Shown here: positions 4,021 to 19,111 of the stretch, piece after piece
How the letters are laid out: each line of letters opens with the position of its first letter
Position numbering within the stretch: position 1 is the first letter of the stretch
From: Chlamydiota bacterium
Lineage (GTDB): Bacteria > Auribacterota > JACPWU01
Direction: 5' to 3'
DNA: 32,000 nt
NCBI GenBank assembly: GCA_016196885.1
Contig: JACPWU010000038.1
Location: 1 to 32,000 of the forward strand
Position numbers and translations under genes: made by a program
The notes under the pieces: generated by a model
The model's input: the letters and a program-made list of their open reading frames with translations, nothing else
The model's database searches: none
Told to the model about the DNA's origin: nothing

Positions 4021-4383
4021 GTGGAAAAGGCAGGAGACATCGAGTTTAAATGTGTTCAAGAAGAGTGCGATGGCCTCGTTCAATTTTCAATCTTGAATGT
4101 GAACCAGCATATTTCTGTCCAATGTCCTTCTTGTCACAAAGATTATACCTTCAATAAAGATTTTTCAGATAAAATCAAAAAGTTTGTGGATTTGATTTTG
4201 GCCGTTCGTGCCTCTGAAGATATTTTGGGCAACACCTATGTGGCCATTGATGTGGACAATCATTCTGTGCGGGTTCCGTATCGCCTGCTTTTAACGAGGC
4301 TCAACACGCTTTTGACGCTTCAGATCGGGACTCAGGAGATCATTTTTAAATTTCGCGTGGAACCTTTACAGACCCAGGCTTGA
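4021..4383 (+). CDS. Hypothetical Zn-ribbon protein (CxxxxC ... CPSC)
   Basis: 120-aa ORF with a GTG start behind GGGAGG. Four Cys are arranged as two knuckles (CVQEEC, CPSC). I recognised no family. Confidence 0.6.
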   Translation: MEKAGDIEFKCVQEECDGLVQFSILNVNQHISVQCPSCHKDYTFNKDFSDKIKKFVDLILAVRASEDILGNTYVAIDVDNHSVRVPYRLLLTRLNTLLTLQIGTQEIIFKFRVEPLQTQA

Positions 4384-4386
4384 CGC

Positions 4387-4788
4387 GTGAACGATCCCAT
4401 TCGGATTTTGCCAGATCTTCAATTCACCGTTCTTTGCGATGATGTGCGTCGTGAGCACAATGGTAAACTCATTCTCCTGGGGCTTTTTGAAACAGTGGGG
4501 GCGAGCCGTTTCCCCATCATTCATCCGACCCTTTTTGTGGTCAACCGCTGGTGCAATGGAGTGGGGGAATACCGTCAGAACACCGTGATTCGTCAGCCGG
4601 ATAATTCCGTTTTAGCGGAGGATGCGCTCACCGCTATTAAATTGGACGACCTCAAGGCCAAGCACACGGTGATCGCCCGTTTCAACAATCTGCGTTTTTC
4701 CAATCCTGGTGAATATGCGGTAGAAATAAGATTGGATGGAGAATTGAAGATTCGTTATCCCATGGTGTTGACTTCGTCTGCCAAATGA
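4387..4788 (+). CDS. Small uncharacterised beta-rich protein, paralog of 18605-18997
   Basis: 133 aa with a GTG start 3 nt after the upstream stop. It shares LCDD, K-x-[LS]-L-x-G-[LI]-F, FP-x-x-H and PG-x-Y motifs with the 130-aa product of 18605-18997. It may belong to an uncharacterised Pfam DUF (DUF6941 from memory, unverified). Confidence 0.65.
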   Translation: MNDPIRILPDLQFTVLCDDVRREHNGKLILLGLFETVGASRFPIIHPTLFVVNRWCNGVGEYRQNTVIRQPDNSVLAEDALTAIKLDDLKAKHTVIARFNNLRFSNPGEYAVEIRLDGELKIRYPMVLTSSAK

Positions 4789-5780
4789 TCAAAAAAGGCG
4801 TGAGTTATTTTTCCAATCGCTATCTGTCTCATTTCAAAGAAGATCTAGTCGAAATTCAGTCTTTCCCTTTTCATTATATTCTTCATACCTTCAGCGAAAA
4901 TGATTTGGCTTATTATCGGGGAACTTTGCAAAAGATGATTGCGCTTTCCAAGGAGGCGGGGCTCCAGGTGTATGTGGATCCTTGGGGGGTGGGAGGGGTT
5001 TTTGGCGGCGAGGCCTTTTCGAGGTTTGTAGCACAGCATCCTGAAGAATGTCAGGTGCTCTCTTCGGGACGTAGGCTCGCGGCGGCATGTCCGGCTCGCC
5101 CTCGCTTTTTAGATTTTATGAAGGGGTGGCTGGAAGCAGTTTCTCAATTAAAATCCGATGTTGTTTTTTGGGATGAGCCCCATTTTTATTTTGAAAATAA
5201 CTTGACCTCAAGAAACTCAAGTGAAGATTGGGCCTGCTGTTGTGATTTTTGTCGACATGAATTTAAAAAGCAGTGGGGCCATGAAATGGGTCCCGAGCTA
5301 ACCGCAGAGATTCTTACATTTCGGGAGGAGTGTCTCATTTCATTTTTGAGGAGTCTTTGCAGTCGAGCCCATCAATTGGGTTTTAAAAATGCGGTTTGTC
5401 TGGTTCCCAAATTCGAAAAAATTTTAGGAATAGAGCATTGGGAGAAAGTAGCTTCTTTACCAGAAGTAGACATTTTGAGCGCTGATCCTTATGCCATCCT
5501 TTTGAATGTCCAGGTGCGAGATTTTGTGAGAGAAATCACTCAACGTGTGACAGGCTTGGCGCAAAAATTTGGAAAAGAATCCGAGATTTGGGTCCAGGCC
5601 TTTCGAATCCCGAAAGGCCGCGAAGAAGAGGTGACGTGGGCCATTCAAGAAGCCTCTTCCGGGAAGCCCTCTCGTTTGGCGGTGTGGTCTCATCGGGGGA
5701 CGGAGGCGATGTCTGAGCTTTCATGCGATCGTCCAGAGCTGGTTTGGGAAAAGGTGAGAGAAGGATTTCATGGTCGCTAG
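4785..5780 (+). CDS. Hypothetical protein, possibly a clan GH-A-like TIM-barrel hydrolase
   Basis: 331 aa, with the start overlapping the upstream stop (ATGA). VVFWDEPHF resembles the NEP acid/base strand of clan-A glycosidases, and EIWVQAF is a possible nucleophile strand. The assignment is weak. Confidence 0.4.
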   Translation: MIKKGVSYFSNRYLSHFKEDLVEIQSFPFHYILHTFSENDLAYYRGTLQKMIALSKEAGLQVYVDPWGVGGVFGGEAFSRFVAQHPEECQVLSSGRRLAAACPARPRFLDFMKGWLEAVSQLKSDVVFWDEPHFYFENNLTSRNSSEDWACCCDFCRHEFKKQWGHEMGPELTAEILTFREECLISFLRSLCSRAHQLGFKNAVCLVPKFEKILGIEHWEKVASLPEVDILSADPYAILLNVQVRDFVREITQRVTGLAQKFGKESEIWVQAFRIPKGREEEVTWAIQEASSGKPSRLAVWSHRGTEAMSELSCDRPELVWEKVREGFHGR

Positions 5781-15648: not shown

Positions 15649-16917
15649 TTGTTGGATATGAAATATCGGAAATCTGCTAGAAAAAAAGAAGTTAAAACAC
15701 TCGAGAAGAATTTGCCCAAGGTAGAGAAGGCTTTAAGAAAGGGAATTTCTTTGGGGCTTGTGTATTTGGATGTCTCTAAATTTTGGTCTTTTGAAGAGCA
15801 GTATGGATGGGAATTTATAGACAAGCTTTTTTCAAGGGTGAGCGAAGTTCTCCTTCATTTGAAAGAGAAAGCCCCGCCTTTTTTGGATGTTTTGCCCACC
15901 TGCCGGATGTGGCGAGATGATTTTGTTGTTTTTTTTATTCCCGGACCTAAGCATCCTCTCAAGTGGACAGAAGGTCTTTTGACCCGAGTCGTCGAGGCGC
16001 TTCGTGAAGGACTGAAGGAGTTTCTTCCTAAAAATGAGCGTCTGGATCAAGGGGATCTTGAATTTTTTTCGGGTTGGGCGATGATTCATTCTGTCAAGGG
16101 GATTCCCGTTGGAACGTTGATCAGTCGGGCGATTCGCGAGGCTTTGGATTTTGCGGCCGAGCAGCGTTTTTCGAATGTATCACAACTGGCCTTGGAGTTG
16201 GACGAAATCATTAACGGGGGAAAGCTTTCCACTGTTTTTCAGCCGGTGGTCTGCCTAGATACCAAAACCGTTTTGGGGTATGAGGCCTTGGCCCGGGGTC
16301 CTGAAGGAAGCGCCTTTCGAAATCCGGAGGTGATTTTCAATGTCGCGGCTCAGGCTCGCTCTCTCATGAAGGTGGAACGTTTGGCCAAGATATCTGCCAT
16401 GGAGGCGGCTCGTCAAATTCCTGAACGATATAAACTTTTTCTGAACATTGATTCTGAGCTCTTGATTCAGCCGAGGGAAATTTTTAAAATGTTGAAAGAG
16501 GTAGGCTGCTTTCCGGGGAGAGTCGTTTTTGAAATCACGGAGCGCAAGGCGGTCAAGGATTTCGAGCAGCTTCGGTCGGTGATTCAGATGATGAAAAAGG
16601 AAGGGTACGAATTTGCCATTGATGATGCGGGCAGTGGCTATGCCTCGATGGAATCCATTGCCATTTTGGATCCCCAATATATTAAAATAGATCAATCCAT
16701 TATTCGTGGGATCGAGACCCATTCTGTGAAGCAAGATGTGGTGAAGGCCTTTGTCAATCTTTCTAGGATGCGTCATGCGATTTTGATTGCAGAAGGCGTG
16801 GAGGATGAAGGAGAATGTCGGATGTTGTCTTCTCTTGGGGTCGCATGTGCGCAGGGGTTTTTCTTCGCCCGCCCTGCCTTCCCTCCTCCCAAAGCGGACT
16901 CTTTACAATGTTGTTGA
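15649..16917 (+). CDS. Degenerate GGDEF-like domain plus EAL domain (c-di-GMP phosphodiesterase)
   Basis: EAL signatures: VFQPVV, YEALARGP, EITER, DDAGSGYAS, KIDQS, AEGVE, QGFFFARP. The N-terminal half is GGDEF-like, but WRDDF replaces GGDEF. The start is TTG 15649 or ATG 15657. Confidence 0.85.
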   Translation: MLDMKYRKSARKKEVKTLEKNLPKVEKALRKGISLGLVYLDVSKFWSFEEQYGWEFIDKLFSRVSEVLLHLKEKAPPFLDVLPTCRMWRDDFVVFFIPGPKHPLKWTEGLLTRVVEALREGLKEFLPKNERLDQGDLEFFSGWAMIHSVKGIPVGTLISRAIREALDFAAEQRFSNVSQLALELDEIINGGKLSTVFQPVVCLDTKTVLGYEALARGPEGSAFRNPEVIFNVAAQARSLMKVERLAKISAMEAARQIPERYKLFLNIDSELLIQPREIFKMLKEVGCFPGRVVFEITERKAVKDFEQLRSVIQMMKKEGYEFAIDDAGSGYASMESIAILDPQYIKIDQSIIRGIETHSVKQDVVKAFVNLSRMRHAILIAEGVEDEGECRMLSSLGVACAQGFFFARPAFPPPKADSLQCC

Positions 16918-16924
16918 GAATCTT

Positions 16925-18004
16925 ATGCTACCTTGGCTAGGGCTGGTCATTACGGTATTGATTTTTGCTGTGGGTGTACTCCTCTTCATTCCCTTTTGGA
17001 GAAAAGAAGCCCATTCCAGAGGGGCTTCGTTTGAAAAAACTTTAGAAAGTTTGCGTTCAGAAGTCCGTCTCAATTTGGATGGGAATACGCAGCTCATTCA
17101 ACAACAGCTTCTGGGCATTTTAAAACAAGTGGGCGATCAACTTTATCAGGCGCGGCAGGATTTAGGAGGGAGGCTTGAAGGGACGGTTCGTGTGGTGGGG
17201 GAATTGCAAAATAAATTAGGAAAGCTCGAAGAGTCTAATCGCCAAGTTTATGAAGTGGGACGTGACATTGCCCGGCTTCAAGAGATTTTAAGGGCGCCCA
17301 AATTGAGAGGAGGTTTGGGTGAATTCTTTTTAGGGGACCTTTTAAGCCAGATCATTCCTCCCGAATATTTTTCTCTTCAATATGGTTTTCGCTCAGGGGT
17401 CAAAGTGGATGCGGTCATTCGCCTGGGCGGAAAACAGTTGGTTCCTGTAGATTCAAAATTTCCTTTGGAAAATTTCTTAAAGATTCTCAGTGCCTCGGGT
17501 GACTTAGATAAAAGGTCTTATCGCAGGCAATTTTTGACGGATGTAAAGAAACACATTGATGCCATTGCCTCCAAATACATTTTGCCAGATGAGGGGACTT
17601 TTGATTTTGCGCTCATGTATATCCCGGCGGAAAATGTTTATTATGAAACCATTATCAAAGATGAAGGCGATTCCGAGCATTCCCTCTTTCAATATGCCTT
17701 GGCGAAAAGGGTGGTTCCGGTCTCACCCAATAGTTTTTATGCGTACTTGCAGGTCATTTTGCTTGGGCTTAAGGGAATGAAAATCGAAGAAAGGGCCTTG
17801 GAAACCATTGGTCAATTGAGGCGGCTCTCGGATGAATTTTCAAAATTTAGAGAGGATTTTGATCGTGTAGGAGCCCATTTATCCAATGCAAAAGGCAGCT
17901 TCGAAAAGGCCGAGAAACGTCTCGGCAAATTCGGTGAGAGGCTTTCCGATGTGAGTGCGCTAGAACCTGAGAAGGCAAAGGCATTGGCGCAAGAAGTTGT
18001 TTAG
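16925..18004 (+). CDS. rmuC: DNA recombination protein RmuC
   Basis: N-terminal TM helix, a coiled-coil region, then VDSKFPLENF and MYIPAENVYYE motifs. I moved the start from the ORF-track 16787 to ATG 16925, because the upstream part overlaps the EAL gene. Confidence 0.85.
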   Translation: MLPWLGLVITVLIFAVGVLLFIPFWRKEAHSRGASFEKTLESLRSEVRLNLDGNTQLIQQQLLGILKQVGDQLYQARQDLGGRLEGTVRVVGELQNKLGKLEESNRQVYEVGRDIARLQEILRAPKLRGGLGEFFLGDLLSQIIPPEYFSLQYGFRSGVKVDAVIRLGGKQLVPVDSKFPLENFLKILSASGDLDKRSYRRQFLTDVKKHIDAIASKYILPDEGTFDFALMYIPAENVYYETIIKDEGDSEHSLFQYALAKRVVPVSPNSFYAYLQVILLGLKGMKIEERALETIGQLRRLSDEFSKFREDFDRVGAHLSNAKGSFEKAEKRLGKFGERLSDVSALEPEKAKALAQEVV

Positions 18005-18366
18005 TGAACTGACTTGTGATTGAAAAGTATATCCTTCAAAACGTGTTCAACTTCTCTCAATGTGCCCTTTCCTAAAGATCCCAACTTCCTTTTGATAAGG
18101 GAATGATGTAAAGAGTGTATTTTATCTACGATGATAGCGGATGGTTTTTTAAAACCAGAAGGGTGATAATCAGGATGTGAAGTATCTATTCTGATTAAGA
18201 AAGATCCCTCTCTTCTGATATTAGAGGTTACGAGGCAAAGGATCACATCCTTTTCTTGAAGGTTGTAGGATGTTGTGGAAAGTACCACGGCAGGGCGGAC
18301 CTTTTGAGAGGTAAGATCGGTGTAAGGAAAAACAGTCAGAACAATATCTCCCTGAGAAAGATTCAT
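18001..18366 (-). CDS. PemK/MazF-family toxin (type II TA endoribonuclease)
   Basis: GDIVLTVFPYTD...KVRPAVVLS...ILCLVTSN pattern. The start overlaps the upstream stop (ATGA). Confidence 0.8.
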   Translation of the reverse strand: MNLSQGDIVLTVFPYTDLTSQKVRPAVVLSTTSYNLQEKDVILCLVTSNIRREGSFLIRIDTSHPDYHPSGFKKPSAIIVDKIHSLHHSLIKRKLGSLGKGTLREVEHVLKDILFNHKSVH

Positions 18367-18608
18367 ACCGGATAGCCATCATCAAGAGTGTAAATATCTT
18401 CTTCCTTGTCGTGGAGGAAGGAATGCGAAGGATCATTTTTTGAAATCCATTCTAAGATTTCTTCGTCGGTTGTTTCAAAATCTTGATCTGTAAAATAGAA
18501 GAAGGTCTCATTGGGGATTGTTCCTAGCTCTTGATAGCTTGGCTTAGAAATTTCATTACTTCCCAGAACGAAGAAAAGGAGTGAATTTCCAGTCCGACTC
18601 TTATTCAT
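18363..18608 (-). CDS. Putative acidic antitoxin partner of the MazF-like toxin
   Basis: 81 aa with a D/E-rich C-terminal half (TDQDFETTDEEILEW...DKEEDIYTLDDG). It is ATGA-coupled on both sides. The assignment rests on position and composition only. Confidence 0.5.
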   Translation of the reverse strand: MNKSRTGNSLLFFVLGSNEISKPSYQELGTIPNETFFYFTDQDFETTDEEILEWISKNDPSHSFLHDKEEDIYTLDDGYPV

Positions 18609-18997
18609 AACATATCCCCTTTTAATAGGCTGAAAACTCTTTCTGCAACAGGTTTATTGTCTATGAGAACCTGAAATTTATACTTTCCGGGTTCTGGAAA
18701 AGAAACGTTCAGAAGTTCAAAAGCACACTCAAAGATAGCGTTGGAATCTTTTGACTCGAGTGAGCCTTGGACGTTTACCAGAGATTTCGTGTCTTTAAAT
18801 TTTTTGCATTCTAAAATAATATTATATTTTCCATTGCAATTTGTTAAGGTGAAGTAAATATTCATTCTCCCGTGACAGACGGGAAAATCTTTTGCAAGAA
18901 TCGAATTGAAAATTCCGATGAGACTTTTTTTATGAGTTCTCTTGTCATCTATAATGTCATCACAAGTGATTAAAGTTAGGGCTTTAGGTGTCTCCAT
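18605..18997 (-). CDS. Small uncharacterised beta-rich protein, paralog of 4387-4788
   Basis: The start is set at ATG 18997 (METPKAL...); the ORF track opens at 19054. It shares TCDD, KKSLIGIF, FPVCH and EPGKYKF motifs with 4387-4788. Confidence 0.65.
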   Translation of the reverse strand: METPKALTLITCDDIIDDKRTHKKSLIGIFNSILAKDFPVCHGRMNIYFTLTNCNGKYNIILECKKFKDTKSLVNVQGSLESKDSNAIFECAFELLNVSFPEPGKYKFQVLIDNKPVAERVFSLLKGDML

Positions 18998-19111
18998 TTT
19001 TAAGCGATATTCCTTTCTTCTTCTATTGAAGCATGAATGTCGGATGATAAGCAATAAGATGTGAAGTGTATGAATCTATCTATTTATGATGCAAAGAGTT
19101 AGCATTTTTAA

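Follow-up and report, generated by a model that had tools for sequence, protein, structure and literature searches.

The window analysed here (32,000 nucleotides, positions 1 to 32,000 of contig JACPWU010000038.1 in GenBank assembly GCA_016196885.1, from a Chlamydiota bacterium that GTDB places in the Auribacterota) carries on its minus strand a module of three small overlapping genes, termed D, A and T, that encode a DUF6941 protein, an acidic protein and a PemK/MazF-family toxin (Table 1). The DUF6941 gene is a conserved part of this module and does not adjoin it by accident; counting the one in the window, 11 or more distinct triads are found in varied genomic contexts. We read D-A-T as a tripartite type II MazF/PemK system in which a disordered antitoxin would dock onto a stabilising or scaffolding D, and assign this reading a probability of about one half. 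Both the architecture of the antitoxin and the third component are undescribed for a MazF system, and the genomic case for a three-gene unit is strong. The original prediction, made from the letters of the window alone, had proposed a tripartite toxin-antitoxin system reminiscent of the toxin-antitoxin-chaperone (TAC) systems. The conservation of the third gene, its co-divergence with the other two and their common base composition uphold the tripartite part of that idea; membership in TAC does not stand.

Calling of open reading frames (ORFs) in the window returned the three genes where they had been predicted. The two junctions, which read ...ATGTTATGAATAAG... and ...CCGGTATGAATCTT..., both contain the stop/start overlap ATGA that had been described. 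The start of D is taken to be the ATG that gives 130 aa. A start at the alternative TTG (19054) would lengthen the protein to 149 aa; the homologues of D all start ME-x-PKAL, however, which favours the ATG. NCBI lists an identical copy of the 81-aa A, annotated as hypothetical, from the metagenome-assembled genome of a Chlamydiae bacterium.

Table 1. Features of the D-A-T module (positions are those of the window)
Feature	Position	Strand	Evidence or remark
D, DUF6941 protein, 130 aa, gene 1 of the module	18605..18997	-	PF22091, E 1e-18
A, acidic putative antitoxin, 81 aa, pI 4.1	18363..18608	-	upstream of the PemK gene, overlapping T
T, PemK/MazF-family toxin, 121 aa, pI 9.5	18001..18366	-	PF02452, E 1.6e-16
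D/A stop/start overlap, ATGA	18605..18608	-	sequence reading
A/T stop/start overlap, ATGA	18363..18366	-	sequence reading
Most conserved D segment, residues 12-31 (CDDIIDDKRTHKKSLIGIFN)	18905..18964	-	alignments A2/A6
DUF6941-linked motif, A residues 27-45 (ELGTIPNETFFYFTDQDFE)	18474..18530	-	segment model, 28 proteins
Antitoxin tail, A residues 46-81 (TTDEEILEWISKNDPSHSFLHDKEEDIYTLDDGYPV)	18366..18473	-	profile A5; presumed MazF-neutralising region
lemA-D spacer, 114 nt, sole place for a module promoter or operator	18998..19111	-	nothing recognised

The linkage of the three genes was read from both ends of the module. From the antitoxin side, all six A genes that bear the motif of Table 1 and have a readable neighbourhood (P0003, P0002, P0021, P0068, P0064 and P0024) have a DUF6941 gene directly upstream and a PemK gene directly downstream; at locus L015 the toxin ORF is present but was not called. 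From the DUF6941 side, a metagenome scan contributed five more distinct triads. Among the 10 independent triads that are fully resolved, the gaps between D and A range from -17 to +16 nt and those between A and T from -8 to -1 nt. The recurrence of the same order with such tight junctions in 10 independent triads places the arrangement beyond chance. Pairwise distances of the three proteins correlate across these 10 triads (Mantel r: D-T 0.78, D-A 0.69, A-T 0.76; p = 2e-4 for every pair), and the motif of A tracks the clades of D.

Base composition sets the module apart from its surroundings. The G+C content of the three genes is 0.35, 0.38 and 0.39, whereas rmuC has 0.455, lemA 0.44 and the window as a whole 0.453; neighbouring genes range from 0.44 to 0.51. 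The eight lowest 1-kb G+C values of the window all begin between 17901 and 18601, so the A/T-rich, island-like composition that had been judged by eye is borne out, the module being the lowest-GC kilobase of the window. D is as GC-poor as A and T both here and in 9 of 9 other resolved loci, lying 5-18 points under its flanks, whereas solo D genes, which are not followed by A and T, lie only about 2 points under theirs (68 solo loci). Since the composition of D matches that of the A-T pair and not that of the host, D evidently travels with the pair and shares its history. The flanks of the triads are unrelated (rmuC/lemA; PIF1 helicase/pyruvate carboxylase; guaA/dnaE; MerR-family/DUF2442). D-A-T is apparently a conserved mobile three-gene cassette. 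A tblastn search of plasmids with D gave no match.

A cassette that seems mobile and compositionally foreign, with a D from a housekeeping-type family, could also be a guard or sensor. The module would then monitor D or the process that D serves, and once D was disturbed or sequestered, e.g., by a phage protein, A would be degraded and MazF would become active. There is a TAC precedent for phage sensing, as TAC systems are reported to sense phage proteins via the chaperone-antitoxin interaction (bioRxiv 10.1101/2024.02.24.581848). Against such a role, PADLOC gave no match for any of the three module proteins at E<=1, a scan of viral contigs with D and A found no relatives, and no defence genes were seen beside the module in the window. 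The idea is purely conjectural, and we consider it very improbable.

T is, by its sequence, a bona fide member of the MazF family, as had been claimed for it. Its match to PemK_toxin (PF02452) scores 60.9 bits (cut-off 23.1) and extends over positions 2-109 of the 109 in the profile, and the PHROG 'MazF-like growth inhibitor' matches it as well (E 5e-12). Profile A8, built from T and its relatives, matches the solved S. aureus MazF (4of1/4mzm, E ~5e-10) and also B. subtilis EndoA and M. tuberculosis MazF6/9, with overall E values of 5e-10 to 1e-6. In the alignment with S. aureus MazF, the invariant K22-x-R24-P25-A26 of T falls on GVRP and residues T47/S48 fall on I-T-G; the Arg-Pro pair aligns with that of the other solved proteins too. 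By comparison with the MazF proteins of B. subtilis and E. coli, we take R24 and T47/S48 to be catalytic residues. T is presumably toxic, and A presumably neutralises it.

A has no match in Pfam, NCBIfam, PADLOC or PHROG, and none of its 28 relatives carries a Pfam domain; the description of the middle gene as acidic and free of any recognisable DNA-binding fold proves correct. AlphaFold2 (AF2), run with 28 homologues, predicts a mostly disordered protein (pLDDT 56, pTM 0.21) in which residues 48-58 and 60-66 alone are helical. Used alone as a query, A found 3 proteins only. An exhaustive search with a profile brought in 4 more genuine relatives, of 73-86 aa; P0009, P0011, P0012 and P0016, which came from the profile search of A, are spurious repeat proteins and were rejected. 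The alignment of A falls into three parts: residues 1-26 are variable, 27-45 are moderately conserved and 46-81 form a tail shared with other proteins.

The tail identifies the middle gene. Its consensus, over the last ~35 residues, is D-E-E-[IL]-x(5-7)-PSFxFLxDxEEDIY[ST]LxDGxP. A profile of the relatives of A (A5) matches 1192 proteins at E<=1, and these last ~35 residues are the part that they have in common; the tail thus recurs in hundreds of small proteins. They are joined to varied N-termini, including PhD/YefM domains (PF02604, in 133-aa proteins recovered at E ~1e-12 to 1e-14) and others that are AbrB-like by eye. P0046, which combines PhD/YefM with the tail, and P0114, which combines an AbrB-like part with it, each lie directly upstream of PemK in a two-gene module, and the protein adjoining PemK on the Synechococcus elongatus plasmid pANL ends FEFLNDEPDLYSLEDGAPI. 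Because the tail behaves as a MazF-partner module in two-gene PemK systems, we assign the middle gene of the triad as the antitoxin.

The motif at residues 27-45, with the consensus E-[VIL]-G-T-x-P-x3-[YF]-F-x-F..., sits where the two-gene relatives have a DNA-binding domain. A hidden Markov model (HMM) of this segment matches only the 28 A7 members among the 129 proteins collected. In other respects the pair resembles MazEF and PemIK (Kis-Kid): the toxin belongs to PF02452, A is a small acidic gene directly upstream of the toxin gene and overlapping it by ATGA as in two-gene MazEF, and the acidic/aromatic C-terminal tail of A is common to two-gene MazF antitoxins. Unlike those systems, D-A-T has a conserved third gene upstream, and A is without AbrB/SpoVT, ribbon-helix-helix (RHH)/CopG, PhD/YefM, winged helix-turn-helix (wHTH), DUF2281, DUF104 or DUF3018. 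The N-terminal DNA-binding and dimerisation domain with which a canonical MazEF antitoxin autoregulates its operon is not recognisable in A: there is no Pfam match, no predicted fold and no upstream palindrome. A survey of MazF partners names AbrB, CopG, DUF3018, wHTH, DUF104, DUF2281 and PhD and contains no third gene of this kind (PMC3879964).

Two loci related to the antitoxin have features of their own. In P0046 (L108 2001-4036), a PhD/YefM-type antitoxin, the tail is present twice in tandem, and the PemK gene of that locus is followed by a gene for an Rnl2-type RNA ligase, placing an RNA cutter beside an RNA sealer. On the Leptospira noguchii plasmid CP091969 (L010 1012-1539), a 175-aa ORF that is unannotated in the plasmid record apparently fuses a DUF2281-like antitoxin to MazF, the antitoxin part ending ...WDNEEDAVYDNL.

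D is a member of DUF6941 (68.4 bits against a cut-off of 27). The HMM searches suggested at the outset thus give D a family and A none. The AF2 model of D (pLDDT 77, 8 strands) predicts an eight-strand immunoglobulin (Ig)-like beta-sandwich. A sequence search of solved structures returned no relative of D. Foldseek against the PDB returned only the AlkC Ig-like domain, UNC119/PDE6D/RhoGDI and the fibronectin type III (FnIII)-like part of GH3, with query-normalised TM scores of ~0.37-0.56; the AlkC region matched is presumably its Ig-like DNA-contacting domain. Residues 12-31, the most conserved segment, are conserved in triad and solo DUF6941 proteins alike. AF2 gives a pLDDT below 50 at residues 21-27, and the conserved segment could be a flexible or partner-dependent site.

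The window contains a second DUF6941 gene. The ORF at 4387-4788 had been called a paralogue of D, and its match to PF22091 (E 4e-25, 89 bits) and a pairwise E of 5e-9, at 22% identity, agree with this. It is separated by 3 nt from a preceding 120-aa ORF whose zinc-ribbon matches are weak, and it ATGA-overlaps an unrelated 331-aa ORF without a Pfam match. The set (4021-5780, plus strand) is another tightly coupled trio, and the G+C content of the paralogue is host-like at 0.49.

The metagenome scan yielded 80 DUF6941 loci, of which 69 have enough downstream sequence to be read. The A-T pair follows DUF6941 in 7 of the 69 (5 of them distinct), or about 10%, and the remaining ~90% are solo; no other toxin or recurrent coupled gene was found downstream in these 69 loci. 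The expectation that the 130-aa family would be linked to toxin-antitoxin genes therefore holds for the conserved triads and fails for the family at large. In four loci the ORF downstream is methyltransferase-like by eye. The nearest relatives of the window D (52-59% identity) are solo, as is the single GTDB match in the DUF6941 contig scan, an Armatimonadetes locus. Where at least 600 nt of upstream sequence is available, D lies 3-56 nt behind cysN/cysNC on the same strand in 33 of 63 loci (e.g., L036, L040 and L042), the cysN/cysNC product being sulfate adenylyltransferase subunit 1 / adenosine phosphosulfate (APS) kinase, with an ACT pair. The arrangement hints that DUF6941 may be connected with sulfate activation or with an EF-Tu-like GTPase. 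Since DUF6941 genes are mostly solo and half of those lie behind cysNC, D appears to be a recruited housekeeping-type protein and not a member of a dedicated toxin-antitoxin family. A literature search under the names DUF6941 and PF22091 found nothing.

Such a distribution also suits a simpler account, in which A-T is an ordinary two-protein MazF pair that has lost its promoter and its DNA-binding domain and is expressed by translational coupling behind whichever D gene precedes it. D would then have an unrelated function of its own and no physical role, and the motif of A would serve some other purpose, e.g., self-association or a degradation signal. The preponderance of solo genes, many of them coupled to cysNC, is consistent with this, as are the nesting of solo genes in triad clades, the unchanged family motif of triad D, the absence of an operator-like repeat upstream, and the frequent tight coupling of DUF6941 genes to varied neighbours, the window paralogue among them. 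If D only donated a promoter, however, other promoter donors would be expected, and A-T stands behind DUF6941, never behind another gene, in every case examined (at least 11 triads with unrelated flanks). The tracking of D clades by the A motif and the A-T-like composition of triad D, unlike that of the host, also speak against it. On balance we think this account rather unlikely.

Nothing was recognised in the spacer upstream of D. No sigma-70-like site was found on the minus strand of 18998-19111 and no Rfam match was found there. In the operator and promoter search as a whole, the count of promoter-like sites, 5 against 3.8 +/- 1.9 in shuffled sequence, is not above expectation. No inverted repeat of 8 nt or more was found upstream of D in the window, and a comparison of six triads upstream of D revealed no common operator element. 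These results bear on the possibility that D is a transcriptional autoregulator that replaces the missing DNA-binding domain of the antitoxin, in the manner of omega-epsilon-zeta or PaaR-PaaA-ParE. Omega is an RHH repressor and PaaR a helix-turn-helix (HTH) regulator. Both are described as transcriptional regulators, and in these systems too the third gene comes first, followed in one operon by an antitoxin without a DNA-binding domain and by the toxin (PMC4803016). This match in order and antitoxin type favours a regulatory D, as do the AlkC structure, which is the best Foldseek match of D, and the lower acidity of triad D (pI 5.9-8.6 versus a solo median of 5.4). D is, however, neither RHH nor HTH and belongs to no recognised DNA-binding family or fold; the structures that it matches are generic ones, and its pI lies close to neutrality. 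No operator was detected in the window, and the solo relatives stand inside biosynthetic operons, which is unlike a repressor. A regulatory role of this kind appears improbable.

In the mechanism that we favour, T would act as an endoribonuclease-type toxin and A would neutralise it through its conserved C-terminal helix and acidic/aromatic tail. The short aromatic motif of A would replace the DNA-binding and dimerising domain of the two-gene relatives (PhD/YefM; AbrB- or DUF2281-like by eye) and would dock, probably by strand addition to the sandwich, on D, which would be made just before A from the same mRNA. D, a recruit from a widespread housekeeping-type family of solo genes, would hold, stabilise or scaffold the unstructured A, and control of the toxin would thereby come to depend on D. 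It is from the strict co-occurrence of the genes that we infer binding of A by D, and a stabilising role of D may follow. A bolder version, which we put forward only tentatively and with more doubt than conviction, would make DUF6941 a second, independently evolved 'partner-addiction' device, in which an Ig-like protein from a housekeeping family often coupled to sulfate-activation genes would bind a portable ~20-residue aromatic motif that had taken the place of the DNA-binding domain. In that case the release of MazF would depend on the state or availability of DUF6941, and metabolism, stress or a phage could thereby be connected to RNA cleavage.

Several points weigh against this mechanism. 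Co-divergence and common G+C content are equally explained by plain co-inheritance of a cassette. The Ig-like fold of D is generic and functionally uninformative, and triad D proteins keep the conserved motif of the solo type with no obvious specialisation. The solo protein P0005 is 72% identical to the triad D of L001, and the nesting of such solo genes in triad clades implies that D works without A-T and that A-T can be lost. P0033, a 72-aa protein with the same tail, is followed not by PemK but by a 200-aa P-loop kinase-like protein with weak AAA_18/SKI/cytidylate-kinase matches (L020-L023; L022 491-1761), so the tail is perhaps not strictly MazF-specific. The D-A contact itself is a candidate interaction only.

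Two of these loci deserve description. At the very point where triad genes stop in the ATGA overlap, P0005 (L004 692-1099) continues for a further 5-9 C-terminal residues, and the gene after it is convergent; the locus looks like the scar of an A-T loss. Antitoxins of the P0033 type are preceded by a 142-aa protein without a family match. It was considered as a DUF6941 member and ruled out, as it has no such match. The set may represent another kind of three-gene module, one in which the tail has been put to use again.

The TAC systems, in which HigBA, MqsRA or HicAB is joined by a SecB-like chaperone, are likewise tripartite, and their accessory family is mostly housekeeping with a minority linked to toxin-antitoxin genes; more than 7% of SecB sequences are so linked (PMC5105189), which compares with about 10% of the DUF6941 genes sampled here. 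The chaperone of TAC derives from housekeeping SecB, and a short, transferable antitoxin segment, ChAD, makes the antitoxin depend on it (PMC5105189). D-A-T resembles TAC in that its antitoxin, too, has a short extra segment whose presence goes strictly with that of the accessory gene (PMC5105189, PMC6377645). The two also differ: D is an Ig-like DUF6941 protein with no SecB match, the order is D-A-T instead of T-A-C, and the toxin family is another. The motif of A is N-proximal (27-45) while ChAD is a C-terminal extension, the C-terminus of A being the shared tail. In our reading D-A-T is analogous to TAC and not homologous; it is not a TAC member.

The tripartite systems named in reviews are pasABC, omega-epsilon-zeta, paaR-paaA-parE and SpoIIS (PMC4803016). 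pasABC, from plasmid pTF-FC2, is similar in that its third small protein, of unknown mechanism, seems to enhance the action of the antitoxin (PMC4803016). It differs in that PasC is encoded last and PasA is itself a repressor, and homology of PasC to D is not expected. Compared with the solo DUF6941 genes, D is a clear PF22091 member with the same N-terminal conserved motif, but the solo genes have host-like G+C content and many lie behind cysNC, whereas triad D has the G+C content of the cassette and is coupled to A-T.

Tripartite toxin-antitoxin systems are rare, and each of those known (TAC, omega-epsilon-zeta, PaaR-PaaA-ParE and HipBST) showed a new way of controlling a toxin. The module gives a first functional handle on DUF6941 and is among the few toxin-antitoxin cassettes seen in a genome of the Chlamydiae lineage. 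It also amounts to a natural experiment, in which one tail occurs either with a DNA-binding domain in two-gene systems or with the motif and DUF6941 in three-gene systems. If the motif and DUF6941 should prove transferable in the way of ChAD and SecB, they would make a small new tool for protein stabilisation or control.

The genes on either side of the module encode RmuC (PF02646, E 3e-55) and LemA (PF04011, E 8e-60), in agreement with the names first given to them. rmuC, on the plus strand, and the toxin gene are convergent and their ends overlap by 4 nt (18001-18004), so that a terminator would find no space there. At 15649-16917 on the plus strand, two genes away from the module, lies the gene for an EAL-domain protein of the cyclic-di-GMP phosphodiesterase type, whose ORF ends just within the annotated start of rmuC; such a protein would be unusual if the genome is chlamydial.

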